A stretch of 64,000 nt of DNA from an uncultured Bdellovibrionales bacterium. Its GTDB lineage: Bacteria; Bdellovibrionota_C; UBA2361; CAIXSY01. A program made the position numbers and the translations under genes. Under the pieces are notes generated by a model. It was not told the DNA's origin and ran no database searches. It saw only the letters and a program-made list of their open reading frames with translations. Positions 47 through 63,142 of this stretch are shown piece after piece. Each line of letters begins with the position of its first letter. Position 1 is the stretch's first letter. The stretch spans positions 2,074 through 66,073 of the forward strand of contig CAZEAC010000010.1 of NCBI GenBank assembly GCA_964510065.1. Reading direction: 5' to 3'.

Positions 47-1060
47 GTGAGTGCCTATGCCGCCGGGAATCAAGCCTGGATGGCTGATGATGGCTCGCTG
101 TTTACCGATCTTAATTCCTTCGATTTTAACCATCCGCCGAATACTACTTTCCGCACCTATCGAAGCTTCGGTGGTGGAGTTCTTGGACTTCAGTCATATT
201 TAGTGATGAACGCGGGCTTCGATAATATTACCAGCGAAGACAACCCGAATGATGCTACTGAGAGAAGCTCAGGCGTCTCAAATGCATCGCGGCGAATGAT
301 GCGACGATGGTCGGTAAATAACTTTCGCGATATTCTGTGCCGTCAGGCGCCGCTCCTTCGCACCACTGATGTTTCAAATTTGGTGTCTGGGTATCTACAG
401 ACTGTCACGGATCCATCAAAGCAGCTTCCCTTTAGAACCTCTACAGGCTGCATGTCATGCCACGCGGCGCTTGACCCGATGGCCGCTACTGTGCGCGCGC
501 TCTTTTACAAAGAGAGCCTTATGCCCTGGGCAACACCGAGCGAAGTGGTCAATAATTTCGAATCAACATTTCGAATTACATTCTTTACCAAGAATTCACT
601 CAGGGCCGATGCGCTTACTCCAGTATTGCTTCCCGCCGAGGCCCCGGCAAATGGCGAATACTCCAATATGTCGCGAGATAGCAGTTTTTACCGGCGTCCG
701 AGCACGGGCGACCTTCGTTACCGAAGCTATGATGGCTCGCTGGTGTGGCAGCACTTCGCGGCGACTGGAGATAGCGACGGCCTTCAGAAAATGGGGCAGT
801 GGATCGCGGCGAACAGTAATGACCTGTATGTATGCGCGGCATCGAAGTATCTGAAGTTTTTCACGGGAATCGAGGTAAACTTACAAGATCCCGGGGATCC
901 ACGATTGCCCGCGATTTCGGCGGCGGACGCGCACTATCGTGATATTGCAGTCGACCTCGGTCTAAAACTTAAGTCGTCACAAAGCTTGCGTTCGCTGATA
1001 AGAGATATTTTGAGCTCAAATCTGTATCAAAAACGAGGTATGAGGGACGTCGCGCAATGA
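47..1060 (+). CDS. hypothetical protein, probably 5'-partial (reading frame is open back to the window start; GTG at 47); possibly the DUF1800-like partner of the downstream Tat-secreted protein
   Basis: Long ORF with no in-frame stop back to position 2. Its stop overlaps the next start (ATGA coupling at 1057-1060). No catalytic motif recognised. Confidence 0.45.
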   Translation: MSAYAAGNQAWMADDGSLFTDLNSFDFNHPPNTTFRTYRSFGGGVLGLQSYLVMNAGFDNITSEDNPNDATERSSGVSNASRRMMRRWSVNNFRDILCRQAPLLRTTDVSNLVSGYLQTVTDPSKQLPFRTSTGCMSCHAALDPMAATVRALFYKESLMPWATPSEVVNNFESTFRITFFTKNSLRADALTPVLLPAEAPANGEYSNMSRDSSFYRRPSTGDLRYRSYDGSLVWQHFAATGDSDGLQKMGQWIAANSNDLYVCAASKYLKFFTGIEVNLQDPGDPRLPAISAADAHYRDIAVDLGLKLKSSQSLRSLIRDILSSNLYQKRGMRDVAQ

Positions 1061-2700
1061 AGATAAGACAGAAAAAAGTTCCACGAGTGGTCACGCGACG
1101 CCAATTCCTTTCGATGGCGGGTGTGGGCGCGCTCTATTGTACCAATCCCGATCCGTTTCGCATGCTTTTCCGAAGCCTCATTGATGGACTTATTGCCAGC
1201 GCACAGGCGCAAAGCGGCGTTTCCGGGGCGAAAAATTATGTCTCCATTCTTTATCCCGGAGCGCCGACGCGCTGGGTTTGGGACGGATTCATGAATCCGA
1301 ATAACGAAACACTTTCCAAAAATAATTCGGTAGCCAATTGGCTCGTTCAGGACAGCTATCAGGCGACACCGGCGAGTAACTACTCGAATGTTACCTATAG
1401 AGCAGAGACTGTGGCTCTCCCGGGAGGTGGTTCAATATATCTGCCTCCGCTTTGGAATAGAAACATTCCAACAACATCTGGTGGTACAGTGCCGATGTCG
1501 AGTCTTCTCAATAATACTTTGATGATGCGCGGTATCGATATGCAGATTGACCTGGGTCATGGCGTCGGACCAGCAAAAGTACTCTTTCCCTTGGGAGCCA
1601 CTGCGAGCTTGACTGGCTTGGTCGGGGATAGCTCCGCAACGCCTATCCCGGTGATAGGTATGCGTGTCGGCGGAGGCGATTATGCCAATCCGATTAACCA
1701 GGGTTACAAGTCGTTAAAGGGCACTTCATCAACCTCAGTTCGATTCGGTAATCCTCCGAATCCGTTGGGCACTACACTTTCACCCTTTATTAACGAGGAT
1801 GCGACGGTGAAGGCAAACGCCGCGCAATTTAACTCCGCTCCCGTGCAGACCGCGCTTAAGAACGCAATGGCCGAGCTTAGTAATTATGCGAAAAGCTCGC
1901 TTCCAGGATCTGATGTGCTCTACAAGAACGCAAGCAACGCGCTTAAACTTTTCCAGACTGCATTTGGCGATCTACAAAATGTGGTCTATCCACCGCTTTA
2001 TAATAAGTATCAGAATCTGTGTCTGCAGTGTGCTCGAACTGCGATTCCCAATATCATTCCGACCAGCGGAAATGGGAAATATAATCTTGCCGCTGGAGAT
2101 TTTACGAGTGAGTTTGCTGGTCAGTTCGCTGTCGCAGAGTATCTTCTCACCAACGGCTACAGCGCGGCGATTTCAATGGCTTCCGAAAATAGCTGCGGTG
2201 TCGCCGGATTGGCGTCTTCGAATGATGAACACCTGGAGCCTGATAGGCAGCAAAGTTTAATCTCGCACAGTTATCAATTCCTTTCGCTATCAGCAATGCT
2301 GTACGAGCTGCGAAGAGTGCTCATCAGCAAAGGAATGTGGAGCAACACGGTTTTTCATGTGAGCGCAGAATATGGAAGGAGCCCACGAAATGACGGTACC
2401 GGCACCGACCACGGAACTGCATCTAATTCGATGACTATTATGTCGGGAGCAATCACCAAGCCATTATTTATCGGCAATATCAAAACCGAAGGCTATGCTA
2501 ACACGGAGTATATCGGTACTTGGGGCATAGCCGCGCCCGTGCTTACTAATAGCGGAACGCAGATAATCACCAACAATATTGCCGCATCAACCGTAGCTAC
2601 GCTTCTTGGGGTGCAAAATCCGATTTCGGCAGCAGCGCCTGTTATCGCGGTAAATGACTCTGGGGTTGTAAGCCTCGCGGAGGCTCCCAAGAACGTATAG
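1057..2700 (+). CDS. Tat-signal secreted protein, DUF1501-like (alkaline-phosphatase/sulfatase-superfamily-like) - tentative
   Basis: N-terminus carries a canonical twin-arginine motif, TRRQFLSMAGVGA. C-terminal region AEYGRSPRNDGTGTDHG resembles the conserved metal-site block of DUF1501 proteins. Translationally coupled to the upstream ORF, as in DUF1800/DUF1501 pairs. Confidence 0.4.
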   Translation: MKIRQKKVPRVVTRRQFLSMAGVGALYCTNPDPFRMLFRSLIDGLIASAQAQSGVSGAKNYVSILYPGAPTRWVWDGFMNPNNETLSKNNSVANWLVQDSYQATPASNYSNVTYRAETVALPGGGSIYLPPLWNRNIPTTSGGTVPMSSLLNNTLMMRGIDMQIDLGHGVGPAKVLFPLGATASLTGLVGDSSATPIPVIGMRVGGGDYANPINQGYKSLKGTSSTSVRFGNPPNPLGTTLSPFINEDATVKANAAQFNSAPVQTALKNAMAELSNYAKSSLPGSDVLYKNASNALKLFQTAFGDLQNVVYPPLYNKYQNLCLQCARTAIPNIIPTSGNGKYNLAAGDFTSEFAGQFAVAEYLLTNGYSAAISMASENSCGVAGLASSNDEHLEPDRQQSLISHSYQFLSLSAMLYELRRVLISKGMWSNTVFHVSAEYGRSPRNDGTGTDHGTASNSMTIMSGAITKPLFIGNIKTEGYANTEYIGTWGIAAPVLTNSGTQIITNNIAASTVATLLGVQNPISAAAPVIAVNDSGVVSLAEAPKNV

Positions 2701-3594: not shown

Positions 3595-3617
3595 CTTGAC
3601 GTTGAGATAGGGCCTAG

Positions 3618-3674
3618 CTCTCCGTGTCTCTGTGGTTTTTTGAAAATAAGATAAACCACAGAGACACGGAGAGC
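3618..3674. repeat. palindromic element, copy 1 (perfect 21-bp inverted repeat CTCTCCGTGTCTCTGTGGTTT / AAACCACAGAGACACGGAGAG with a 15-nt AT-rich loop)
   Basis: Read directly from the sequence. Lies between convergent gene ends (2860-3594 + and 3703-7254 -). A near-identical copy occurs at 33158-33206. Confidence 0.8.
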
Positions 3675-16089: not shown

Positions 16090-16755
16090 TTAGTCCCCAT
16101 TTTCACGAGCAAGAAAGGCGTGCATTCCGTAACGCCAGTTCTCTTTAAGAGCTCGCGTGGCGCGATCTTTTGCGCCCTTACGAAGTGCACTCAAGATTTC
16201 CTTATGCTGCTGATACGACGCTTGTACTAGACCTTCTTCTGCCATGTAGCGTGCTTCGTAGCGCGCGAGTTTTAGCTGAAGAGATTCAAGCAGGTCGTTC
16301 AAAGTCTCGTTCGTGGCCGACCCAAGCAGAACTGAGTGAAATTGGCGATCGAGTGCTCGCGCTTTCTCCGGATTCTTACGAGCACGTAAAAACTGCTCAT
16401 TGATATCGGTAAGTTTGTCGCTGAGAGTCCGTGCACGTTCGAAACAAAGCTCAAGGCGAAGCGCTTCTAATTCACCGACAATTGGATACAACTCTTCGGC
16501 CTCAGTCCGCGAAAGTGGAGCTACCGAAAATCCGATGTTTGGCTTTGCAAGCACTATGCCGTCTCGCTCAAGTGCAATAAGAGCTTCTCGAAGTGGCGTC
16601 CGGCTTACACGGAGCCGCTTGGCAAGCTGCTCCTCTTTTAGTCTTTTGCCTGATTCAAGCTGTCCGGAAATTACAAGATGAAGCAGCTTGCGACGGAGAA
16701 TTTCTCTGTTGGTACCTTCGCCGCGCGGCTGAGTCTTGCTGATCTTGTCCATGGT
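16090..16755 (-). CDS. GntR-family transcriptional regulator (FadR/FCD-type C-terminal domain)
   Basis: N-terminal wHTH KRLRVSRTPLREALIALERDGIV is typical of GntR. C-terminal helical FCD-like domain. Start at MDKISK (the ORF track extends to 16848). Confidence 0.75.
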   Translation of the reverse strand, partial: TMDKISKTQPRGEGTNREILRRKLLHLVISGQLESGKRLKEEQLAKRLRVSRTPLREALIALERDGIVLAKPNIGFSVAPLSRTEAEELYPIVGELEALRLELCFERARTLSDKLTDINEQFLRARKNPEKARALDRQFHSVLLGSATNETLNDLLESLQLKLARYEARYMAEEGLVQASYQQHKEILSALRKGAKDRATRALKENWRYGMHAFLARENGD

Positions 16756-16972
16756 ATGACTTTTCTGAATGATAATGCAATTTTGCGGCGATGCAAAGTG
16801 AGGACGCAGTGCGGCCACGCCGCAACAATAATATCGAAAGGGCTCCATTCCGGCACGCGCGAGGCAGGGCGCGTGCCTGGCCGGCTAAGCCTCGTAGCAT
16901 GGGAGAAGCAATTCGCTTGGCGCGCTTTCAAAAAAGTAAAAAAATATTGCTGTAAGTTTATACCCTATCGCT

Positions 16973-19366
16973 TTAGTTTAGCACACGTAACCCACTTGGC
17001 ATGCCCGGCTGTCCGACGTCAACAGTTTCGGCAAGTGTCGAGTAGGCCATGTTTCCTAGCGACAAGGTAAGCCCGTGCGAACTTATAGCGTACTCATCGA
17101 CGAGGAGGGGACGATCGGAGTATGTCGCCTGCAGCGAGCCGCCGAACGCAGTGACTGAACAGCCCCATGGTCGAAATATAATTTGCAGAGGAAAGTCTTT
17201 GTCGTAGATATCAAGAAACTTTGGCCCCAAGTCGCCGTATATCTCTTTCGCGTAGACCATTTTCCCGTTCACATATTGGGTAAACACGATACCCCATGGG
17301 AATTCCTTGAGTCCGTTAATCTGCTTATAGCGAAAGCGTGAGTCAAAATTACGGTACGTTCTTGCCTCGATCTGATAATAGTTATTGGGGTCCTGTCCAA
17401 GGGTAACTATAATACTTGCATCTTCGCCTACGGTTTTTGTCGCGCGTAAAGTTGCGCTAAACTTCCCGCTGCTACTCACAGGAAGCGCCCCTGAAAGCGC
17501 TCCATTGAGTGCGAGTTGAGTAATGCTGGTACTAACGGTAGCTGGGGTGGTATGTGTCTGACGTGTGCTTTTGTCGGTACAGCTAATTTTATAGTAGTAG
17601 GTCTGAGACGCTTGCAAATTAGGCAGCGCATGACGGTGATTCGTCTCGTATGCGCTCGATGTTACTTGATTGCCGTATGCTGTCGTCGGTCCGTACTCTA
17701 CTCGAGAGGCGCATGGAGTTGACGATGTCCAGCTCACTTCGACGGAATTTGAGCTGCCCAAAGATACCGCAATGTTGCTTAACTCCGGTGCCTGATTATT
17801 TGGAGTTAAAGAAATAATTCGTACGTTATCTGTTCCCGCCAAGACGCCCACATTCTCTAGTGAGGAGGTAAGATAGTTAGAACGTGAAGCGCTTATTCTG
17901 TATGAGCCCTGTGCTACATAATCAAAAATGTACCTGCCATGTAGATCGGTGACTGCTTTAAACTGCAATGGATTGCCATCTATCGCGGTGTTTCGTGAAG
18001 CGCTGTATGAAGCGAGTGTGACCTCTGTTCCTGGCAGTACCGTTTGATCGACATCTCGCACCGTTCCGCTGACAGTGCCTACGACAGCATCTCGGTTGAG
18101 AGCCGTGGCAATGGTCTTGGCAATATCCCAGCCTAACCGTTGCATGCTGCTTCGAGTATAGTCGAAAGGTACGAGGCCGGCGTCTGTGACAAGATTGACG
18201 CCGTTCCAGCCATCTTCGTCGGTTATTTCAAAGAATCGATAGTCCCAACCGCTGCCAAGAGAGTAATCATTCCAAAGCTCCACGTTTTTCACCATAATCG
18301 GCAGTGTGTAGTAATCACCCGTATGCTTAAGACCTGAGATAGCGTCCATTATGCCGGCATGTTTATGCGCCCATAAGCTATCGCGCATTGATCGGTAGCC
18401 ATAGCGCCCCGCAGCACCTGAGTGACACTCATAGCTGTAGTAAAGTGGTCCCTTATTATGAATCCACTGGTAGGCATATTGAAAAATTCCAAAATTTTCA
18501 GGGCAGGATTGATTTAATTTGGGCGGATCGAATTCTCCCTGCCCGCAGTTTTCAAGATCGGTCCCAAGCGAGTTCAACGCAGAGAGACCATAAAAAGCCG
18601 AGTCAACATTCACCAGGGGAGCAATAATCCAAGTGAAATTTTTTCGAAGGCTGTCTGCTAAGGAATCGTTTGAGAGGAGATTTCTTATGAGTCCTTCGGC
18701 CTGGTGTGGACAGGTTTGCTCGGTCGAATAGTGTGGACCAAAACGTAAATAGACCGGCTTCTTGTTTGCTTCTGGAACCGAGCTGTCGGTTATAATTATT
18801 ACTTTTACCGGCAATCCGTTTGGTTGTGTGGCGGTGCCAGGGGAGTACCCTACAATTCCGTCTTGGACAAGCGGATTCACGTGTGCAGCAAGTTTAAAAT
18901 AGGGGTTCCCCGAAAACTCATTGATCATCTGATCTATGTACGAAAAGGGCATGGGAATCCGGCTGACAATATGTGCGGTATTTTGTTCAATCGTGAAACT
19001 AAAGTTGGCGTAGGTACCAAATGCGCCGTCGAGAGTGACAAGTTTCGGTTTCTCGATTGAATTTGGCTGCATGTAATTATAAATCACGTATGCATTCACA
19101 TGCGTACTAAAGTCGTCAGCTGAGGTCGTGCTATTAATATTAACTCTAAAATTAAGCGTTCGTCCCTGAGCGCCTTCGACGACACAGTGAAAGTAGCTGT
19201 TGGCCGTTCCGTTCGGGAATGGTTTGGTAGTGAAGGTCACATTGTCGCCACTGATCACGACATTTTCACAGCTCGCGCCTTCGAAGTCTCCGCGCAAAGT
19301 ATAGGCGTCGGCCTGTTGCGCGCAGATAATTCCAAGCACGATTAAAAATGTTATTAAAGCCCTCAT
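16973..19366 (-). CDS. large secreted multidomain protein with a carboxypeptidase-regulatory-like (CarbopepD_reg) beta-sandwich and a fibronectin-III-like domain; possible M14-like N-terminal region
   Basis: Signal peptide MRALITFLIVLGIICAQQADA. GTVRDVDQTVLPGTEVTL...DLHGRYIF...GSYRISASRSNY resembles CarbopepD_reg. SWTSSTPCASRVEYGPTTAYG...QTYYYKISCTD resembles an FN3/PKD-like domain. Confidence 0.5.
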   Translation of the reverse strand: MRALITFLIVLGIICAQQADAYTLRGDFEGASCENVVISGDNVTFTTKPFPNGTANSYFHCVVEGAQGRTLNFRVNINSTTSADDFSTHVNAYVIYNYMQPNSIEKPKLVTLDGAFGTYANFSFTIEQNTAHIVSRIPMPFSYIDQMINEFSGNPYFKLAAHVNPLVQDGIVGYSPGTATQPNGLPVKVIIITDSSVPEANKKPVYLRFGPHYSTEQTCPHQAEGLIRNLLSNDSLADSLRKNFTWIIAPLVNVDSAFYGLSALNSLGTDLENCGQGEFDPPKLNQSCPENFGIFQYAYQWIHNKGPLYYSYECHSGAAGRYGYRSMRDSLWAHKHAGIMDAISGLKHTGDYYTLPIMVKNVELWNDYSLGSGWDYRFFEITDEDGWNGVNLVTDAGLVPFDYTRSSMQRLGWDIAKTIATALNRDAVVGTVSGTVRDVDQTVLPGTEVTLASYSASRNTAIDGNPLQFKAVTDLHGRYIFDYVAQGSYRISASRSNYLTSSLENVGVLAGTDNVRIISLTPNNQAPELSNIAVSLGSSNSVEVSWTSSTPCASRVEYGPTTAYGNQVTSSAYETNHRHALPNLQASQTYYYKISCTDKSTRQTHTTPATVSTSITQLALNGALSGALPVSSSGKFSATLRATKTVGEDASIIVTLGQDPNNYYQIEARTYRNFDSRFRYKQINGLKEFPWGIVFTQYVNGKMVYAKEIYGDLGPKFLDIYDKDFPLQIIFRPWGCSVTAFGGSLQATYSDRPLLVDEYAISSHGLTLSLGNMAYSTLAETVDVGQPGMPSGLRVLN

Positions 19367-19448
19367 GTAGTCGATCTCCGGTATTGATATTTGCAAGGCG
19401 CCATATGTTGGCTCATAGCGCTGTATACTGTTAGCAGGTAATGTATAC

Positions 19449-19633
19449 TAAGGAACCTCTGAAAAACTATGCATTTCGTCTTCGCTGGCCTTTCGGCGAT
19501 CTTTGCGAGAAAACATGCCGGGAAAATACTCGAAATAGCCCTGCTATTCCTGCGTTTTTCCCGGCATGTTTTCTCGCAAATCTCATCCAAAATTCCAGCA
19601 AATCCAAAACGCCTAGTTTTTCAGAGGTTCCCT
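19449..19633. repeat. nested inverted-repeat element: perfect 25-bp inner IR (TTTGCGAGAAAACATGCCGGGAAAA / TTTTCCCGGCATGTTTTCTCGCAAA, 29-nt spacer) inside a 20-bp outer IR (TAAGGAACCTCTGAAAAACT / AGTTTTTCAGAGGTTCCCTA)
   Basis: Read directly. Lies in the divergent intergenic region between the 807-aa secreted protein gene and cpaB. Confidence 0.8.
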
Positions 19634-19922
19634 AAAATACCTTGCCATAAATACCCCCGCGGTCGTTTCTTTGAAGAACTGCCGATCTCTAATGCTTATT
19701 GTATTCTACAGGATATTTGGCTAACCGGTCGCCTTTCAAGATCAGGCGATCTCCTTGTCGCCTACAAAGGTAGGCCGCATCGGTAAACGGAGCCCGTAAA
19801 TCGCGTCAGGGCTCTGTTCCGGTGAGAGTTGCGAGTCCGGAGGATAGTGCTGATAGAACGGCCATTCGTTCATTTCGAACCAAACCCTAGCGCCCTGGTC
19901 TGATAGTAAAAGGAACGGCTCT

Positions 19923-20813
19923 ATGCAGGGGAAATTTCATTCACAGTACAGGCAATATTCAGTACGAAGGACGCGGATTGCCGTGTGTATAGCGACGTCG
20001 CTCTCTCTAATCTTTGGAGTGGCGCTAGTTTTGGTCCTGCTTCCGCTTCGGACGGCTCCCAAGGTGCCGGTAAGCGTGGAGAAAAGCGAAGCAACGGCGT
20101 ATCGCGCAGTTAAGCTCTTTACCGTTGAAAGTGAAATCGGGGCCGGAACAGCGCTTGGCTCGGTTCGTGTTCGCGAGCTTCAATGGCCGGCGAGTGAAGT
20201 TTCGAAGGATGCGGTTCGTAACCTTTCCGACTTAGAAGGTCGCTACGCACGAATTACCCTGGTTCCAGGAAATCCAATTCGCTTGAGCGAGACAACCAAT
20301 GAGCGGCCATTGATTAATCCTTTAGGCTCGCTCATTCCACCCGGGTACAGGGCGATTGCCATCCAGATCGATGATGTGATTCGAGAAGAGAACTTAATTG
20401 GGCCGCAATCAATTGTCGATGTGACGTTAACCTATCGCGAGAGCGACAGGCTCAAAAGTAAGATAATCGTCGAAAATGCTCTTGTGGGCTCGCGAAATGG
20501 AGATATCGAGCCGTATAAAGAGAGTGACTTAAAGACTATCAAGCAGAGCCGGACACTTACCCTGGTAATAAAAACGGAGGATGCGCTTAAAATATCCGTT
20601 GCGCAGCAGCTTGGTAAAATAGGCTTACTTCTCAAAAGTGAAGCCGCTTCACGGGCGAGTCCCGGAGTATTAGAAACTGATGAGTTTAAAGTGTTGAATG
20701 GTGAGGGTGCGGAAGCACCAGGCAAGCTCGCCTGTCAGAGAGGTACCGCGGTAATTGATGGGCGAAAAGTTGTAATTGGTTGCGATGATTCACTGACCGC
20801 GCTACCAAAGTAA
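19923..20813 (+). CDS. cpaB: Flp pilus assembly protein CpaB/RcpC-like
   Basis: N-terminal TM anchor (IAVCIATSLSLIFGVALVLVLL) and a SAF-like region (VRNLSDLEGRYARITLVPGNPI). Size (296 aa) and architecture match CpaB. Confidence 0.6.
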   Translation: MQGKFHSQYRQYSVRRTRIAVCIATSLSLIFGVALVLVLLPLRTAPKVPVSVEKSEATAYRAVKLFTVESEIGAGTALGSVRVRELQWPASEVSKDAVRNLSDLEGRYARITLVPGNPIRLSETTNERPLINPLGSLIPPGYRAIAIQIDDVIREENLIGPQSIVDVTLTYRESDRLKSKIIVENALVGSRNGDIEPYKESDLKTIKQSRTLTLVIKTEDALKISVAQQLGKIGLLLKSEAASRASPGVLETDEFKVLNGEGAEAPGKLACQRGTAVIDGRKVVIGCDDSLTALPK

Positions 20814-24463: not shown

Positions 24464-26605
24464 CTATTCGACAAGGGTAACAACCTTGTCGCCCTCAGTT
24501 TTTGTGCGTACGATCAGATCAAAGGGTCGCTGCGGTGTGAGTCGGCCGCGCACGACATCGCAGCTTGCAGGCTGAGTGCCGCCCTCAGAGAGCTCAAAAT
24601 TATATGGGGGAATATAGGAAGGCAAGGTAAGCGGCGGATCCCAATCAGGCTCTCCGTCTGCGTCGCAATCGTTAGCGACATTTATATCACGAGTTAAATT
24701 GCTAGTTGAGGGGAACTCTGCCCATGAGCCGTATCGCTGCCGTGCTCTGCCAGTTTCAATTGAGTAATCATATATTGTAGTGCGGATAAACCCGGCAATC
24801 TTCCACCCGGCGGCATCAGCAGGATCGATATGCCGTTCGCTCGATCTGCCGTTTACTCCGCGGCAGCCATATTTGTCGTTGTCGCCCTCACGAACAATAA
24901 TCGGAACATTTACTACCCAGGCTCGCGCTCCTAACATGCTTACTAGCGGGTAGGTGGTTGTGCGTGGGTTATAGTTATTAAGAAGCGCCGACGAGCAGGC
25001 GCCGTTATTGGTTCGACTTGAAAATGGGGTGTCTGTTCCCATATAGGGTGGAAGAAATGATGGATCGAGATAGGTTGAATAATCTTTGAAAGGGCGGTAC
25101 TTCTTCACATCACCTGTGTCATAGTCCCAAATTGCGCACATAAAATCACCCCTTCTATCCCAAGGCGCAAACATTTGACATATTCCATTGTCGACCCAGG
25201 TAATAAATTCATCTTGTAGCTCGACATCGCTTGCGAAATTATCAATCCGGCCGAACATATTCTTAACGTCATTCCCAACAAGTGGCCTGTAAAAATCTAT
25301 CGGATAGAAATTGGCAGGGTCAATAAAGAGCCAGGGCTTGATATACGCCCACTCAAGTGGCGTGGTCCTTAGCTGTGGATTATCCTTTGGAATGATCACT
25401 GAGTGGAAGCTATTTGCTCCGGAGAGCCTATCGCGCATACGATTTCGAGCATTGTCCGAAGTCAGGCCAGCAGGAAGTATGCTGAACCAATCACCTATAT
25501 CAGCCTGAATGCCTCCGCTTGGGCAGACATCGGTACCCACAAGCGCATTTCGTACCTGTGCTTCGTTCACCGTATCAGTTTGCGAACCTACCGGGAGCCC
25601 GACTACTCCGAAATGGTCAAAGTGCGTGTAGTTGGTCCTATCAAGGCGGAAGGTATTCCAAAATGGGGTCTCGTTCGTTGTCGAATGATACGCGAGCTCT
25701 TGCTCAAGGGCGTACTTACTCTGTAATCCAGTCAGTGTAGTATCGGAAGCGATTGCGTCAAAGGCGGCGTCGCTCATTGTCTTTGGATTTACCGGATCTG
25801 CGTAACCCACCGGCGTCCAAGAATCTGGAAGCGGCAAGCTAAGGTCAGAGTCGCCATGATACGCCTCGACCGGAAAAGCTGGGTAGGCGCAGTTTGTGCC
25901 ATCATCATTACAATAGATTTTTACCGGCGCAAAAAGCCTATCGACGTCGTCGACGTCATTGATATTAAGCTCGCCATTGTTATCGAGAAGAGCACAGAGC
26001 GGAATTGCAAAGGGCGCTGCGCACGTTTGCCCAATCCTATCAGCGATGGCTGTGGCGGTAACTTCGACTTCAAAAAGTGCATTAATAAATTTGGGAAGGC
26101 CTGGCTGCACTATCGGTCTGGTTAACTTCACCCGAACCGCGTTGGCAGCGACATACGGCGGAAGCACGACACTGGTCGTACCTTCTAAAGATCTAAAACC
26201 CGCTTCTGCGCTTGAATCAGGAAGCCATCGACCGCGCTCAAGGCTGACCGCGAGATTATCGGAGCCGCCGGGCCCGGCGTTCCAACTAACTTTAGTATCG
26301 TCACTGAGGTCGTTTCGGATAGCGCCGAGTTGGATAACTTTACTTGCACCCGGATAGCTTAAAACTTTCTGTCCCTCGATTGCGTCAAGCGCGGCGATAC
26401 GGGACTTTTCCCAGCAGTCGAGTGAGGAGCATAATGTTGCCGCCGCTGCGGTCGCCGCCAAGTCTGCGCTGCCCTGTAGTTGGCTACGCGCGAGCGCGAC
26501 CGATCCAACAAGCACGACGGTTCCAAGGAGGAACATAAGCGCAACGGCAATGAATATCGCCATTACTATGGCGACGCCGCGCTCGTGAGTAGATGAGTAC
26601 CGCAC
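24464..26605 (-). CDS. TadG-like (Tad_N-domain) large pilus-associated protein (713 aa)
   Basis: N-terminus HERGVAIVMAIFIAVALMFLLGTVVL matches the TadE/TadG N-terminal signature (ERG..A.V.FAL). Large Gly/Asn/Asp/Pro-rich extracellular region. Confidence 0.55.
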   Translation of the reverse strand: MRYSSTHERGVAIVMAIFIAVALMFLLGTVVLVGSVALARSQLQGSADLAATAAAATLCSSLDCWEKSRIAALDAIEGQKVLSYPGASKVIQLGAIRNDLSDDTKVSWNAGPGGSDNLAVSLERGRWLPDSSAEAGFRSLEGTTSVVLPPYVAANAVRVKLTRPIVQPGLPKFINALFEVEVTATAIADRIGQTCAAPFAIPLCALLDNNGELNINDVDDVDRLFAPVKIYCNDDGTNCAYPAFPVEAYHGDSDLSLPLPDSWTPVGYADPVNPKTMSDAAFDAIASDTTLTGLQSKYALEQELAYHSTTNETPFWNTFRLDRTNYTHFDHFGVVGLPVGSQTDTVNEAQVRNALVGTDVCPSGGIQADIGDWFSILPAGLTSDNARNRMRDRLSGANSFHSVIIPKDNPQLRTTPLEWAYIKPWLFIDPANFYPIDFYRPLVGNDVKNMFGRIDNFASDVELQDEFITWVDNGICQMFAPWDRRGDFMCAIWDYDTGDVKKYRPFKDYSTYLDPSFLPPYMGTDTPFSSRTNNGACSSALLNNYNPRTTTYPLVSMLGARAWVVNVPIIVREGDNDKYGCRGVNGRSSERHIDPADAAGWKIAGFIRTTIYDYSIETGRARQRYGSWAEFPSTSNLTRDINVANDCDADGEPDWDPPLTLPSYIPPYNFELSEGGTQPASCDVVRGRLTPQRPFDLIVRTKTEGDKVVTLVE

Positions 26606-33157: not shown

Positions 33158-33206
33158 ACTCTGCGACCTCCGTGTCTCTGTGGTTTTTAAGGTATTCAAA
33201 CCACAG
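33158..33206. repeat. palindromic element, copy 2 (CTCCGTGTCTCTGTGGTTT...AAACCACAGAGACACAGAG; one mismatch)
   Basis: Same core as 3618-3674. Lies upstream of recQ, between recQ and the divergent HEAT-repeat gene. Confidence 0.8.
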
Positions 33207-33346
33207 AGACACAGAGGGTGCAGAGTTAGTGTAAGAATACCCGGGATTGATGAGTCATTACCCGCCTACTCACTAACTGTTTAGTATCATTGTCTTTTTA
33301 ATCCGCACGCTACTGCGGCAAAATCGCATAACATTAGGGAATACGC

Positions 33347-49888: not shown

Positions 49889-50296
49889 GGGGGTGTCATG
49901 GTATCGACGGGATTTATGAGATCTATGTGAGCACGCCTAGGATCCGCAGGCCTAGTAAAAAAGGCGGAGAAACCTAAATGCAAACTCTTTTGATTTTGCG
50001 CAGAATGAAGAGCTGGCTATTGCCGCTTAACGTTCTGTAGATCGGTCCTCGAAAGACGACTGATCGGTTCTTATGCGACGCGCTTGTAATTGCATAAGGG
50101 CTTAAACTATTCGAGCTGGTCGCTGCAGCCGTTTGCCCTGCAGGGATGAGAAAATAGGCAGACTCGCTTGACGGAGATTCCGTAACAGTGAATCCAGATA
50201 GCTAAATTCGTCGCAAGGCGAAAAGTGCTGTTACTAAGCGTGTAGTGCATGTAGATTGAGACTTCTCGGACGCGGGTTCGACTCCCGCCACCTCCA
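49889..50296 (+). ncRNA. ssrA: tmRNA (ssrA); tag-like reading frame 49980-50030 encodes A-N-S-F-D-F-A-Q-N-E-E-L-A-I-A-A-stop
   Basis: 5' end GGGGGUGUCAUGGUAUCGACGGGAUUU. GUAAAAAAGGC precedes the resume codon. Tag ends in LAIAA-UAA. 3' end GGACGCGGGUUCGACUCCCGCCACCUCCA (T-arm and acceptor stem, CCA not encoded). Lies downstream of smpB. Confidence 0.9.
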
Positions 50297-50660
50297 GTTT
50301 TCCCATTCGGCATTCGAGCCCAGGGGCGGCCGCCCCTCTCGCTCGCTATGGCTCGCTTCTCCCCGCATCTCGGTTCGAATTGGTTCCCACCAGGTCCAGA
50401 CTTCGCCCCTCTGGGGCTTCGTCTGGCATGCCAGCTTTGCCGTGAAGCCTGTCGTCCCGAAGCTTTAGCGAAGGGCGACTATTCCCTTCGGCATTCTCGA
50501 GCCCAGGGGGCTCCGTCCCTTCTCGCTGCTGATTGCGGCTTCACCGCGATGACTCGAATTGGTTGCTGCCGCGTCAATGTTTTTCGCTTGGCACTTGGGC
50601 CCTTAGCGCGATGTAATTCGTCGCTCCGGCGGGTTCTTCTGGATTTACGGGCATCTCGCC
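50297..50660. repeat. two degenerate ~90-180-bp direct repeats resembling decayed copies of the ssrA 3' end (TCTCGGTTCGAATTGGTTCCCACC; GACTCGAATTGGTTGCTGCC)
   Basis: The blocks TTCCCATTCGGCATTCGAGCCCAGGGGC...CGGTTCGAATTGGTTCCCACC (50300-50392) and TTCCCTTCGGCATTCTCGAGCCCAGGGGG...GACTCGAATTGGTTGCTGCC (50483-50572) align at roughly 75% identity. They resemble the tmRNA T-arm/acceptor. Confidence 0.6.
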
Positions 50661-50803
50661 CACTTTGTGACGAATCCTGATGAGATTTGCGGGCTTAGGA
50701 CGTTGATCCTTCAGAATCGAATTTGCATTGTGAGAGAATGTTGATCGCTTGGATAGCTTCAATTATCAGGCATTTTTTTTAGTCGATTCTTGAAAAGCAC
50801 CTT

Positions 50804-51955
50804 TCATCTCGACTTTTGAGGTAGGAATGCAAAAACGATTTCTCTCCGAGCGCGTACCCCATTTTCAGTGCTTTCTATAAGCTGCATCTTTTTCAATGCC
50901 CCCAAATCGCGAACAAGAGTTTTTCTTGTTTTGCCTGCATAGGCTGCTGCAATCCGAGGAGAGATTTCTGGAATTTTTGCTACGGGGACGGGTGTAAAAT
51001 CCATAGCTAGTGCAAGATCGCGTCTGCGCTTTTCAGATTTGGATGTCTTCGCACCAAATAGCTCGTGTATAAGATTTCTCCAGGTCACATCAAATAATTG
51101 GTACTGAATCAATTTAAGCTGTTCCTTTAGCCCGTCAACAAAGCCTCTGATTGCATAATCGATAAACTGGATTGTGTCGCCACCAGATTGGCTTATGTAG
51201 TCGAGCTGACGATAATATTCATTACGAGTTTGGTTGTAGTGATTGCTTAATAGGTGTGCGGCAGCTGTAGGAACTTTTCCATTCAGAAGTAGCTGAAATT
51301 CAATAAGTCGTCCCGTGCGTCCATTCCCGTCTCCAAAGGGGTGTATAAGCTCAAAATACGCATGCGCCACTATTGCCTTCAGTATCCACATTCCTGTGTC
51401 GTATCCAGAGATTTGATTGAAGTCTGTAGCCAGCCATTTGCATAGTCCCTCCAGAAGATATTCGCAGTCTTCGAATGGCACGGCTCGGTATCGTCCGACA
51501 CCAACGGAATTCTTTCTGAATTCACCGGGTACGACGCCTTCTTCAACAGCCAACCCCTCAAGAACCATTTTATTGTATTCTCGAATCCGATCTATCGTCA
51601 CGGCTGATGGATTGTCACCGATCGCATCGTCCTTGATCTTGTTGCAAGCTTTTAGAATGTTATCGATTTCTTGACCGAGGTATTCCTGTGATGGTGGCAG
51701 TTCGAGTTTTTTTTCAATTCGTTGAATGACCTGTTCTTCTGACAGAGTGTTCCCCTCAATGGCAGTTGTAGCTCTTACGCCTTTCGCCAAGTAAAGGCTG
51801 TGAAGGTGATTTGCGATGACGGGGTGTAAGGGGGTGTTTGCAATGTGTTGGCACTTGGATTGTGCCTCGCCTAAACCAAGCCAAAGTGAAGGTACTGGTT
51901 TTCGCAAATCTAGGTTAAATTTTAACCAAGGATGTGTCTCTAAATATTTCCTCAA
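50804..51955 (-). CDS. Fic-family protein (AMPylase-type, with inhibitory helix motif and C-terminal wHTH-like domain)
   Basis: Fic active-site motif HPFGDGNGRTGR. Upstream inhibitory motif TAIEGNT ((S/T)xxxE(G/N)). Followed by a low-GC upstream region. Confidence 0.85.
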   Translation of the reverse strand: MRKYLETHPWLKFNLDLRKPVPSLWLGLGEAQSKCQHIANTPLHPVIANHLHSLYLAKGVRATTAIEGNTLSEEQVIQRIEKKLELPPSQEYLGQEIDNILKACNKIKDDAIGDNPSAVTIDRIREYNKMVLEGLAVEEGVVPGEFRKNSVGVGRYRAVPFEDCEYLLEGLCKWLATDFNQISGYDTGMWILKAIVAHAYFELIHPFGDGNGRTGRLIEFQLLLNGKVPTAAAHLLSNHYNQTRNEYYRQLDYISQSGGDTIQFIDYAIRGFVDGLKEQLKLIQYQLFDVTWRNLIHELFGAKTSKSEKRRRDLALAMDFTPVPVAKIPEISPRIAAAYAGKTRKTLVRDLGALKKMQLIESTENGVRARREIVFAFLPQKSR

Positions 51956-52215
51956 ATTTGTCCCTAGCGTATGTGTGCATAATATAGTGAATACAATATA
52001 TTATAGGATTATACGATGCAAAATGTCCAATAGAATGTCCTATGTATTGGGCGTCTAATTTGGCGCTGTTGTTTGATTCAATATTTCAGGTACTTAACCT
52101 GGACTTCTGTGATTACTCATAAAAGGCAGGGAAGGAATTCCCGGGGTTAATGGGTAATTGCGGACTTTTCACAGTTTCCTGCTGCGAATATCCAAGCACT
52201 CGAGACTTCGAGGTG

Positions 52216-52551
52216 CTATTTTCCAAACTTCTCAACGTAATCTTGCCGCACCGGAAAAAATGCATCGATGATTTTACAGTCGGTGAGCGCTTTGCCCGAA
52301 TGAATTGCATTCGAGGGAATTACTGCTACCGCTCCGGCATTGAGAACTCTCGACTCGCCGTTAATCGTGAGCTCAAACTCGCCTTCGATTATATTCGCGA
52401 GCTGCTCATGAACGTGCGAATGCTCGGGAAGTATGGCCCCTTTGGAGATGCTCCAGTGGGCAAGTGTAATGTTTTCCCCGTGCACGAACTTTGCACGAAG
52501 ACCGGGGAGTACTTCGATATCCTTTACTTTTGTAAGATCTATAAATGTCAA
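52216..52551 (-). CDS. cupin-2 domain protein
   Basis: G(X)5HXH(X)3,4E-like motif LPEHSHVHEQ...G and the second cupin motif G...P...H. 111 aa. Confidence 0.65.
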   Translation of the reverse strand: MTFIDLTKVKDIEVLPGLRAKFVHGENITLAHWSISKGAILPEHSHVHEQLANIIEGEFELTINGESRVLNAGAVAVIPSNAIHSGKALTDCKIIDAFFPVRQDYVEKFGK

Positions 52552-52623
52552 AATGTCCTTAACTTTTTCAGAACTACTTCTGAGTGCTTAAGAATAATCG
52601 CTTCATAGGTTATAATAATAAAT

Positions 52624-53520
52624 TTAAAAGATCGAGCATGTTGAAATGCGAAGCAGCTGGGTGGAGTGATCGGTCATGAGTATGTTGACGCCGTCGCCAA
52701 AGAGGCTTCTCCAATAAATTGGCCTGTCATAAACTGAGCCGGCGATATTCACGAGCGTTCGAATGCCGTGTTTCCGGATAGCACTGACCGCTTCGGGTGA
52801 ATACCACTTCTCAAGTTCTATAACGATCGGGTCTAAGTCTATTGATTCAGCAAGCTTGTCAGGTGAGCGTACTCGCATAAGGAGCGCGATATCGAAATAT
52901 TTATCCCTAAGAATTTTTCCGCATTGAGTACTCTTGCACTGTACAAGCACCCTGGCCTGATTATTGGTCGCACGAACCAGATCCAAGACTTGAGCGATTG
53001 CGTCGGGACTTTCATCCTTTAAATCTAGCTCAAGAAGTGTATTAAATGGCTTTACCGCTTCGAGCGCTTCGCGGAGGGTCGGAATCTTCTCGTCGTCTCG
53101 GCCTGCAAGTTCCACAATCTTTATCTCTTGATCGTTGAGCGAGTCGATTCTTCTTCCTTCGAATGTTCCTGGAGTTAAGGTGTTCCCACACTGAACCGTT
53201 GCGTCATGAAATAGAAGCGCGGTTCGTTCTCTGTTTAGACGCACATCGACTTCTAAAAGCGGAATGTGCAGTGAGGCGAGCTCTCGAATTCCGGAGAGAC
53301 TGTTGTCGGCGAAATGCTCTGTCCTTGCGCGATGAGCTGAGGGCCACGCGATTTCAACTGATCTATCTCGTAACGTTTCATGAATGGGGCGAGCTTGCGG
53401 CCATCGCGAGGAGCTCGCCGAAGGCGGACATTCGATGGTGGCATCGCGAATAGCCGTACAGCCGTTTAGCACCAACAGAATAAGGCAGAGGCCAAATTTT
53501 ATTGCAAAATTTATCGGCAT
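52624..53520 (-). CDS. glycerophosphodiester phosphodiesterase-family lipoprotein
   Basis: HRARTEHFADNSLSGIRELASLHIPLLEVDVRLNRERTALLFHDATV matches the GDPD catalytic block (HR...EN(T/S)...E.D...T.D...HD). Lipobox LVLNGC. Confidence 0.7.
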   Translation of the reverse strand: MPINFAIKFGLCLILLVLNGCTAIRDATIECPPSASSSRWPQARPIHETLRDRSVEIAWPSAHRARTEHFADNSLSGIRELASLHIPLLEVDVRLNRERTALLFHDATVQCGNTLTPGTFEGRRIDSLNDQEIKIVELAGRDDEKIPTLREALEAVKPFNTLLELDLKDESPDAIAQVLDLVRATNNQARVLVQCKSTQCGKILRDKYFDIALLMRVRSPDKLAESIDLDPIVIELEKWYSPEAVSAIRKHGIRTLVNIAGSVYDRPIYWRSLFGDGVNILMTDHSTQLLRISTCSIF

Positions 53521-53573
53521 AAGAATGCTGCGATGTAATTCAGATAGTGGATAGGATCGGCTCAGATTTGTTC

Positions 53574-56390
53574 CTATTCGCGATTATCGCCTGCTGTCGG
53601 ACTCAGCCTTTTAAGCAGTGATTCGAACAATGGTACCAACTTTTCCAGCGCGACGGCAATTCGCTCGGCGCTGTGTTCGAGGTCCGGACCACTTGCTTGC
53701 ACGGGAAGTGCGGTGAGGCGCTTTATAGTGCCCACGGCTTGAAGCAGCTCTTCAAAGCTTAAGGAGACAGCCGGGTTGGCCTTCGCTTTAATAAGTTCGG
53801 CCTTCTTCGCGCAGCAAAGGTTCGTAAGCGCGACTTTAATTGGTAAAGGGTTTAGGCCCAGGCATTCATTGGCGAGTTTCTTAAATTCCTCACTCTGCGC
53901 ATTACCGGGAAGCGGCGATTCGAGACTTTCAAGCATCTTGGAGATGATTACCTTTACATCCTCAATCTGCGGCCCTTTCAATTCAATGTGAATACCAAAA
54001 CGACCAAGCCGAAGTGCGGCGCGATCGACTAAGTCGATATGGTTAGTCGCCGCCATGAAGATTATCTCAGGATGCTTGGTTACTTCACGCTCGATGACAC
54101 GCAACATCGCGTTGGTAAGCGCGATCTGTTCGGGTGAGTTCTTTACAAGCTGCCGTTCAATCATCTCTCCTTCGATTTCGTCGAAGAAAAGAATGCAAGC
54201 CGGAGAGTTATCTTTGCGCATTTTTCCGGCGGCTTCTTCGATCTTTGTTTGAATAAATTTGGCGAGCTGCCGTTCCATCCGCTCCTCGGTCTCGGAGAGC
54301 AGCGCTTTATTTTGCCCCCACGACTCGGAGCTTCGTTTCGCGTCCTGATAAGCGGTGGACATCTCTTCTCGGGAGATACGCAAGATTGGCATACCCATGG
54401 TGTTACCGAGACATTGCACAAGAAATGTCTTGCCAACGCCGGGATCGCCGTAAAGAATAATTCCGTTCAGGAATACCTCTCCGGGACTCCTACCGCTCCA
54501 TGCGCTTTTGTTCTCGAGAAGCAATACGTGCTTTTCAATAAGCTCCGTGAGCGTGTTGACTATATCCTCATAGCCCCAATAGTCGCTACGATCGACGGAG
54601 TAGAGCCGCGTTACCGAACGTCGCGTATCTTCGACGTACTTAGCAACGGGCGAGTTCGAAGCCGTGAGATTCGCGGTTAAACTTCGCGAAAGATCCGAAA
54701 TATCATCCAGTCTTTGTAGCAAACTCTTTACGTTTCTTCGGACGAACTCATCTTTGGAGAGTACCTGCATCGATAACAGGACCCCGGCGAGGCGGGCATA
54801 CGGAACCTCTTTCGTCTCTTCCTTGCAGGCCTTAATTTCGTCATCGATAAGCCGTGCTATCTGTACGACATCGCGCTGAGCCATAAGTATGCGAATGCCG
54901 GTGGTCGTGCGGAGCAGTGGTTCGAGGCCTGTTTGCCGCATTGCTGACTCAAGTCGCTTGGCATTTTCCGGTAAGCCGAAAATGAGGTCTTCTACTGCCC
55001 ACGCGAGTGCCCGAATGTTTTCGGGTGATTCGAAATAATTTTCCGTTTTGTAGGTACTGCCTTGGAGCTTTCGAATCTTTCCCGTAAGCAGTTTTCCAGC
55101 GGCTTCGCGAATTGCTGGCTCCGAATGGGCAAGAATCGCCGAAACTAATTCCGCGTCGTTTTCGACGGGAATTATCTTTGAAAACTCAGGTGCAATCCGT
55201 CTTCGAAGTGCGTCCATCTCATGAAATGGATCGCGAGGTATGGAGATAAACGCGCTATCAAGCGTTGAACGGAGGCCATGGAAAATGCCTAAGAGCTCGG
55301 CCTGCATTTCAGGAGTTCGAAGGACTGCCTCAAGCTCTTGCGGTGCTACCCGCCACGCTGGAGCCGAACCGCTAAGCATATCGGTAGCAATTAGCTCGTG
55401 AAGATCGTACGTGTCAGGCTTTGTTGGATCGATTGCACGAGTTCCGAAAGAGATCTGAAGAAGCTTTGCGACTAGTTTCAGATCGCCGAGCAGTCCATCC
55501 AGTACTGCAGGCTTAAGCGATACTGAAAGTTGAGTTTCAGCAACGACAGTGTCGAGCTGGATTGGGTCGACATCGGTAATCGTAGCGGCGATCGTATAAA
55601 GCTTCTTGGAGAGCTCTTCAATTTGCTGCCCTATGGTTTCAGCGCGAGCACGGCATTCGTCGGCGGACTTTCGAAGACTACTGCCGTTCTCTTTGTCATT
55701 TTGCGCCTGCAGCTCAAAACTCGACGCTTTTGTCAGTTCGCTCGCTTTACTCTGCTGCTTTGATTTTAGCTCTTTAAAATGTGGAAGAAACTCCTCTTTG
55801 CGCGAACGAGAAAGCGCTAAATACGCCTCCGGCCCGGGAAGGTTCTCCATCTGGCTGTGGAGCCGAATGAATGGCGATCCGTAGCGGTACCACTCGCTGA
55901 GTGCGATAGTATCTCGATTGGCGCGAAGATAGAGCGAATGCAGCAGATCTTCCTCGCGCGATACCTTAGCCGGCTGGCGCTCGGTGAGCGCCACCTTCTT
56001 GCAGTCAACATGGTGCATAGCAATTGGAAGAAGCTCTAGAGAAACGGCTAAATCGCGTCGCGGATCGCGAGATCCAAAACGATTCACTGTCTCTAGAAAT
56101 TTTCCAAGCGCAATAAAGCCGCCGGTAGAGACCCGCAGTGCGTCAATAAATTCCTGAGCGTTGACCGATTTTGCTCGGAGGCCTGTGCCACGCGAGATAT
56201 CAATAGTTTCGTGAAGCGGTTGTCCGCGTACATATTTTGAGAGAAGTTCAGCAAGCTGTCGCAGCTCGCGAATTGGTGAAACTCGATCAATCGGTGGCAC
56301 GCGAGGTGCAGTTTTTACTGGGCTCGATGCAGGTGATGCGCCGCCACCTCTTGTACTAGCTTCATGGCCAAAGGCACGAGATTCAAGCAT
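53574..56390 (-). CDS. orphan classical-AAA ATPase with a ~640-aa predicted alpha-helical N-terminal region
   Basis: Walker A ILYGDPGVGKTF. Walker B ILFFDEIE. Second region of homology ATNHIDLVDRAALRLGRFGIHIEL (classical AAA clade). Large insert between Walker A and Walker B. Confidence 0.8.
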   Translation of the reverse strand: MLESRAFGHEASTRGGGASPASSPVKTAPRVPPIDRVSPIRELRQLAELLSKYVRGQPLHETIDISRGTGLRAKSVNAQEFIDALRVSTGGFIALGKFLETVNRFGSRDPRRDLAVSLELLPIAMHHVDCKKVALTERQPAKVSREEDLLHSLYLRANRDTIALSEWYRYGSPFIRLHSQMENLPGPEAYLALSRSRKEEFLPHFKELKSKQQSKASELTKASSFELQAQNDKENGSSLRKSADECRARAETIGQQIEELSKKLYTIAATITDVDPIQLDTVVAETQLSVSLKPAVLDGLLGDLKLVAKLLQISFGTRAIDPTKPDTYDLHELIATDMLSGSAPAWRVAPQELEAVLRTPEMQAELLGIFHGLRSTLDSAFISIPRDPFHEMDALRRRIAPEFSKIIPVENDAELVSAILAHSEPAIREAAGKLLTGKIRKLQGSTYKTENYFESPENIRALAWAVEDLIFGLPENAKRLESAMRQTGLEPLLRTTTGIRILMAQRDVVQIARLIDDEIKACKEETKEVPYARLAGVLLSMQVLSKDEFVRRNVKSLLQRLDDISDLSRSLTANLTASNSPVAKYVEDTRRSVTRLYSVDRSDYWGYEDIVNTLTELIEKHVLLLENKSAWSGRSPGEVFLNGIILYGDPGVGKTFLVQCLGNTMGMPILRISREEMSTAYQDAKRSSESWGQNKALLSETEERMERQLAKFIQTKIEEAAGKMRKDNSPACILFFDEIEGEMIERQLVKNSPEQIALTNAMLRVIEREVTKHPEIIFMAATNHIDLVDRAALRLGRFGIHIELKGPQIEDVKVIISKMLESLESPLPGNAQSEEFKKLANECLGLNPLPIKVALTNLCCAKKAELIKAKANPAVSLSFEELLQAVGTIKRLTALPVQASGPDLEHSAERIAVALEKLVPLFESLLKRLSPTAGDNRE

Positions 56391-63071: not shown

Positions 63072-63142
63072 AAACCCGTGACGGTCCCACATGTCCCTAC
63101 TTTTCTGAGAAAGTAGGGACATGTGGGACCGTCACGGGTTTT
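63072..63142. repeat. perfect 32-bp-arm palindrome (AAACCCGTGACGGTCCCACATGTCCCTACTTT-ctgag-AAAGTAGGGACATGTGGGACCGTCACGGGTTT)
   Basis: Read directly. Overlaps the stop codon of the 63097-63951 gene and lies upstream of the flp-like operon promoter region. Confidence 0.85.

Follow-up and report, generated by a model that had tools for sequence, protein, structure and literature searches.

The DNA analysed here, a 64-kb stretch referred to throughout as the window, contains a 556-bp gap (19367-19922) between two divergent genes, and within this gap lies a large palindromic element. The size of the gap is counted with the peptidase start at the ATG at 19366, which is preceded by a GGAGA ribosome-binding site. 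A preliminary description had placed the element in a gap of about 550 bp between a secreted-protein gene and cpaB: both the gap and its neighbors are as described, the cpaB gene being an orphan RcpC/CpaB-like gene. The features of the locus are as follows.

16090-16848, minus strand: GntR/FCD regulator gene, downstream of the peptidase gene
16973-19366, minus strand: gene for a secreted M14-carboxypeptidase-like protein (Pfam Peptidase_M14, CarboxypepD_reg); start 85 bp from the left end of the element
19448-19451, no strand: target-site duplication, left copy (CTAA); an identical CTAA lies directly outside both TIRs
19452-19631, no strand: whole element (candidate MITE), 180 bp, 45.6% GC compared to 50.3% in the window, without coding capacity
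19452-19469, plus strand: left TIR GGAACCTCTGAAAAACTA, 18 bp, perfect; the 18-mer is also found at at least 120 metagenome loci and on a 1171-bp IS5-family insertion sequence
19470-19501, no strand: left subterminal arm, imperfectly complementary to 19581-19613 (arm alignment)
19502-19526, plus strand: inner inverted repeat, left arm, 25 bp, perfect (sequence match)
19527-19555, no strand: central spacer, 29 nt, with a small terminal hairpin at 19532-19550
19556-19580, minus strand: inner inverted repeat, right arm, 25 bp, perfect (sequence match)
19581-19613, no strand: right subterminal arm (arm alignment)
19614-19631, minus strand: right TIR, 18 bp, perfect (sequence match)
19632-19635, no strand: target-site duplication, right copy (CTAA), identical to the left copy
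19923-20813, plus strand: orphan RcpC/CpaB-like gene (Pfam RcpC); start 291 bp from the right end of the element

The closest homologue of the RcpC/CpaB-like protein among 5.8 billion proteins is only 31% identical, and the host lineage is, judged by this value, very poorly sampled. An exact match to the CpaB-like sequence was found only on a 1.5-kb Logan contig, which ends 65 bp outside the element. Because the next CpaB-like relative is so distant (31% identity), no orthologous intergenic locus was retrieved for an empty-site comparison. The gene itself (19923-20813) lies outside any tad operon, its neighbors being a polysaccharide deacetylase and a GH31 glycosidase; a TadG-like gene (24464-26605) is found 4 kb away on the opposite strand.

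Architecture of the palindrome

The element is built from two layers of inverted repeats. The inner repeat, TTTGCGAGAAAACATGCCGGGAAAA, pairs 19502-19526 (plus) with 19556-19580 (minus) at 25 of 25 positions across a 29-nt spacer (19527-19555), exactly as previously noted. The outer repeat, TAAGGAACCTCTGAAAAACTA, pairs 19449-19469 with 19614-19634 over 21 bp with one mismatch; its perfect part is the 18-bp sequence GGAACCTCTGAAAAACTA (19452-19469 and 19614-19631). An outer repeat carrying one mismatch had been reported, and the repeat is real; the mismatch, on the other hand, results from counting part of the target-site duplication as repeat, since the last three bases belong to the CTAA duplication, which is only partly self-complementary. 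The earlier span of the element (19449-19633, about 185 bp) is corrected correspondingly to 19452-19631, or 180 bp.

Neither the inner nor the outer repeat occurred in any of 100 dinucleotide-preserving shuffles of the 64-kb window. A repeat finder returns both layers as parts of a single imperfect palindrome of about 210 bp (19437-19646), the fold of which departs strongly from that of shuffled sequence (z = -13.7 for the plus strand and -17.6 for the minus strand). Alignment of the two arms gives perfect blocks of 25 and 18 bp among 18 defects in 93 columns: if the defects were placed at random, runs of at least 25 and at least 18 would arise with a probability of about 0.0008 (about 0.08%), and the two perfect blocks are not expected from randomly scattered mismatches. 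The possibility that a second small element had inserted into the first was rejected: only TC is common to the two flanks of the inner repeat, and pairing runs through the junction.

Open reading frames that cross the element have no relatives among 5.8 billion proteins or 1.8 billion cluster representatives. One match of a translated frame through the element, to a repetitive protein of 1287 aa, is spurious.

Three further palindromes were observed elsewhere in the window. Two hairpins (3617-3674, between convergent gene ends, and 33158-33226) have a common core, CCGTGTCTCTGTGGTTT / AAACCACAGAGACAC, with arms of 22 bp (perfect) and 29 bp (90% complementary), respectively: these look like members of a REP-like family of repeated palindromes. 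The third, at 63072-63141, is an inverted repeat of 32 bp without mismatches around a 6-nt loop (AAACCCGTGACGGTCCCACATGTCCCTACTTT); its perfect arm is longer than that of the element in the gap.

Relatives with the same ends

No second copy of the element or of its repeats is present in the 64-kb window. The inner 25-mer gave no match in metagenome contigs. A 20-mer from the inner arm gave four matches among genomes sampled at one per species, each of a single arm in unrelated flanks; these are chance matches, because the 20-mer looks like an ATG preceded by a ribosome-binding site. In viral contigs one match was found for the inner-arm 20-mer and one for the outer 18-mer, the latter inside a coding region, and both are likewise attributed to chance. 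The 210-bp palindrome had no blastn match in plasmids and phages, and translated reading frames, used as a proxy for further copies, gave no true candidates. Across the window, metagenomes, species genomes, viruses, plasmids and phages, the known copies of the element thus number one.

The ends are another matter. The exact 18-mer GGAACCTCTGAAAAACTA is present at at least 120 metagenome loci, and aligning the interior of the element to these loci and to the 160-bp subfamilies gave no similarity beyond the TIR. Among the matches listed, an exact end has an inverted partner (allowed up to four mismatches) within 4 kb in 101 pairings: 96 of these span 34-247 bp, with 140 bp the commonest length and further classes at 50, 153-156, 162-163, 170-171 and 204 bp. 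Both ends are exact in only 12 of the listed pairs. Relatives with these ends occur in multiple copies on single metagenome contigs, contig Ga0228615_1000086 carrying at least four. The group is found in genomes ranging from very AT-rich to GC-rich, with Pseudomonas and Halomonas replicons among its carriers.

Target-site duplications are a common property of the group. Identical 4-bp flanks were found in 56 of the 93 distinct paired elements among the matches listed, compared to one of 93 for a control 4-mer taken further out from the same elements. The duplicated words among these 56 (again from the matches listed) include CTAA (13), TTAA (10), TTAG (10) and CTAG (2). A check of the element in the window for such a duplication, as had been proposed, was positive: CTAA is present on both sides, and this is the commonest duplication among relatives with the same ends.

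The interiors are wholly different between subfamilies, and members of 50 bp consist of little more than two ends: the ends are thus the propagated unit. Long foldback interiors nevertheless recur across the superfamily defined by GGAACCTCTGAAAAACTA. The 50-bp mini-elements (loci L022, L058, L113 and L124; for example L022:62-111) have two 18-bp TIRs around a 14-nt spacer and carry 4-bp duplications at their flanks, recurring at several sites; they may represent a minimal mobilisable unit for a transposase acting on GGAACCTCTGAAAAACTA ends.

A sister family of 140 bp, the commonest length, was aligned from 36 sequences (alignment A1, loci from L008-L127, for example L054:2361-2500). Standard pairs occupy 98.3% of cells in this alignment compared to 35-51% when the partners are slid; of 41 pairs, 17 have compensatory changes, and one helix covaries in each of its nine pairs. 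The structural covariation of this family is unusually clean. This covariation may be due to selection on a single-stranded fold, to co-evolution of both ends with a protein, or to copying at the DNA level. The family has a conserved central block, GAGTTTAyrcGt..TAAATGAGCATTTTGA. A copy on a Pseudomonas veronii plasmid (L129:1491-1637) combines the interior of the sister family with different ends (CAGGCTGTTGAAGAAC) and a TTAA duplication, an arrangement which suggests an exchange of ends between IS5-type transposase specificities.

Three elements of 1171-1172 bp among the matches listed have the same ends as the element in the window. One of these (L076), 1171 bp long and flanked by TTAG on both sides, encodes at 416-1360 (minus strand) a protein of 314 aa that matches the NCBIfam model NF033581, IS5 family transposase (transpos_IS5_4; E 7e-102, 340 bits, cutoff 140), as well as Pfam DDE_Tnp_1 and DUF772. 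L096 contains an identical copy of this insertion sequence in another location. In ISPa41, a named element of the IS5 group, the ends (GGAATCTCCGAACAAG) agree with those of the window element at 12 of 16 positions, the transposase and the L076 protein are about 50% identical, and the duplication is TTAG. The target duplication of IS5 is 5'-YTAR-3' (PMC5009759), and both the CTAA of the window copy and the main duplicated words of the group are of this form. The element thus resembles the IS5 group (IS5, ISPa41, IS2000) in its 4-bp duplication at YTAR and in ends that begin GGAA, and differs in being 180 bp long and without a transposase gene.

The defining properties of a bacterial MITE include a length of about 50-1000 bp without a transposase gene, TIRs, a target-site duplication, and TIRs shared with an autonomous insertion sequence. 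The element is of such a length and lacks such a gene, has both perfect TIRs and the duplication, and shares its TIRs with the 1171-bp insertion sequence of L076 and L096. Two further marks of a MITE are several copies in the host genome and empty sites in related genomes; the 64 kb of host DNA covered here contains one copy. MITEs that combine IS5-family ends with unrelated interiors are an established class, examples of which are BrickBuilt, MITE293 and MITE700 of Porphyromonas gingivalis and the Neisseria ATR element linked to ISNme1 (PMC4596501). Like these, the window element is short, non-coding and intergenic, has a target-site duplication, and carries TIRs that are identical or nearly so to those of an IS5-family insertion sequence around an interior unrelated to the parent (a 'type II' MITE). 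Unlike these, it has the TIR GGAACCTCTGAAAAACTA (in place of GAGACCTTTGCA), lacks internal tandem repeats, is foldable over its whole length with a perfect 25-bp inner stem, and has been seen in only one copy (in 64 kb of the host).

The absence of a nearby transposase, noted previously, holds: no IS5-like transposase was detected by tblastn in the 64-kb window, and no transposase domain in the large open reading frames checked between about 7.4 and 30 kb.

Operator and RNA readings

Because the same ends are found on a transposase-bearing insertion sequence and on short paired elements, with a YTAR duplication, the sequence at 19452-19631 is, in all probability, a MITE of the IS5 group inserted between the M14-peptidase-like and RcpC/CpaB-like genes. 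The preliminary description had offered a MITE as one possibility, and it is this possibility that is upheld by perfect 18-bp TIRs which an IS5-family insertion sequence and about 100 short paired elements have as their ends. Points against it are the single known copy, the lack of a cognate transposase in the 64-kb window and the extension of the palindrome past the duplication. Two other explanations, in which the palindrome serves the neighboring genes, bear on the same locus.

The palindrome could instead be a plain regulatory operator bound by a local factor, such as the neighboring GntR/FCD regulator. The setting is a divergent promoter region with the GntR/FCD gene just downstream of the peptidase gene, and the motif TGTATACT, four copies of which are present in the window compared to 0.53 expected, adjoins the element, with two copies 20 bp apart against its left end. 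Yet more than 100 unrelated contexts have the same 18-bp ends together with target-site duplications, and a transposase-bearing insertion sequence has these ends too, as a local operator would not; with its 180 bp and its 25-bp arms set 29 nt apart, the palindrome far exceeds typical operators in size; and the operator-like signal that is present (GTAT-N6-ATAC) sits in the flanks, outside the element. That the element itself is an operator is thus very improbable indeed.

The flanks deserve separate consideration. The palindrome extends 12 bp beyond the duplication, where 8 of 12 positions are complementary; in family members the mean beyond the duplication is 2.7 of 12, and the probability of eight or more under the null is 0.005. 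With the element and one copy of the duplication removed, the target-site string is ...GTATACTAAAATACC..., and the empty site, reconstructed as ...GGTAATGTATA[CTAA]AATACCTTGCC..., forms an imperfect palindrome of its own (GTAT-N6-ATAC). This motif lies inside the 8/12 palindrome and is followed by a tandem (A/T)AAATACC. The TGTATACT pair and the right flank are at 19422-19449 and 19635-19655; the other copies of the motif are at 15827 and 60120. The empty site may have been an operator for the GntR/FCD regulator (16090-16848, minus strand), and insertion of the MITE into an operator-like site is a possibility to be treated as a lead only.

The alternative of a strand-specific RNA hairpin, whether derived from a MITE or not, holds that a minus-strand transcript would place the element in the 5' leader of the mRNA for the peptidase (plus the downstream GntR gene), where a stem of about 90 bp could govern how stable the mRNA is and how it is processed or translated. 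The peptidase gene, 85 bp away, has the minus strand as its sense strand, and it is the minus strand that folds better (-133.7 compared to -100.9 kcal/mol for the plus strand), because on this strand each of the 15 arm mismatches in the element is either G·U (6) or purine·purine (9), with two tandem 5'-GA/3'-AG motifs among them; on the plus strand the same 15 positions are C·A or pyrimidine·pyrimidine. The accompanying skew is confined to the element (plus strand: 49 C, 33 G), the flanking intergenic DNA being unskewed (88 G, 84 C). Moreover, in the sister 140-bp family many compensatory changes preserve the hairpin. Against this, covariation of transposon ends can also arise at the DNA level, and the superfamily as a whole shows the purine·purine asymmetry, although not the G·U asymmetry. 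Nor does the better-folding strand show a clear bias relative to tandem flanking genes: it is co-oriented in 10 cases and opposed in 6, a crude count based on partly unreliable ORF calls.

Scans for RNA signals point in the same direction. At gathering thresholds Rfam gave no match to the element; at permissive thresholds it gave only generic miRNA-hairpin models (at most 35 bits compared to thresholds of 70-90), and a scan of the sister elements was likewise without a match. A search for promoters and terminators returned no more than chance (one 9/12 match compared to 1.1 expected): there is no convincing promoter upstream and no U-tract. An intrinsic terminator was ruled out, since the hairpin lacks a U-tract and none is needed between divergent genes. 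The option of a structured ncRNA, also raised in the preliminary description, accordingly gains no direct support, given that the Rfam scan was without a match and that the strand shows no clear link to the orientation of flanking genes. We consider the RNA hairpin quite unlikely. An RNA function, to which we would give only a slim chance, would in any event add to the MITE reading and not replace it.

The only Rfam match in the window at gathering thresholds is a tmRNA gene (49889-50299, 140 bits), which is followed by a stretch of lower GC content (50000-54000; 0.47-0.48) containing a gene for a Fic-domain protein (50804-51955, minus strand). This stretch may be an island integrated next to ssrA.

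Imperfect intergenic palindromes of about 100-200 bp are represented in enterobacteria by ERIC and in Neisseria by Correia elements, which, when transcribed, can form long hairpins and can alter the expression of neighboring genes. Their termini differ from those of the window element, and they have a TA duplication or none; we know of no sequence similarity between the window element and either ERIC or Correia.

A bolder reading combines these themes: elements with GGAACCTCTGAAAAACTA ends would form a widespread undescribed superfamily with actively preserved interior hairpins, the elements acting as single-stranded modules of RNA or DNA, and the copy in the window would have rewired the peptidase-GntR operon, either through a leader hairpin or by splitting an operator. 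It draws on the pairing and compensatory changes of the 140-bp family and on the superfamily-wide purine·purine strand asymmetry, and we regard it as rather unlikely.

Origin and significance of the element

Returning to the element as an IS5-group MITE, a probable history can be outlined. An IS5-group DDE transposase made elsewhere and supplied in trans would bind and cleave the 18-bp ends, cut out or copy the element, and insert it at a CTAA (YTAR) target in the intergenic region between the peptidase and cpaB-like genes; repair of the 4-bp staggered cut would then duplicate CTAA on both sides. The cognate transposase would be present in the host now, or would have been so once. The interior, including the perfect 25-bp inner repeat, would be dispensable for mobility, because relatives with the same ends have different interiors or almost none. 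Since both ends are exact in so few of the listed pairs, the perfect TIRs and intact duplication suggest that the insertion may be fairly recent or well preserved.

The exact TIR string was found in no relevant paper in the searchable literature, and sister-family members in Pseudomonas and Halomonas replicons carry no annotation. The group defined by GGAACCTCTGAAAAACTA ends seems, from these searches, to be undescribed, though the kind of element (an IS5-ended MITE) is common and known.

For the locus, a striking nested palindrome is thus explained as what is very probably ordinary mobile DNA and not a dedicated regulator, and its exact boundaries and insertion site are now fixed. Insertion 85 bp upstream of the gene for a secreted peptidase, beside TGTATACT repeats, may have changed the regulation of that peptidase. 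For the wider family, the 18-bp end defines a large group of mini-elements left unannotated in current records: its recognition could help the annotation of repeats in metagenomes, and the group offers a possible test case for why the hairpins of MITEs are conserved.
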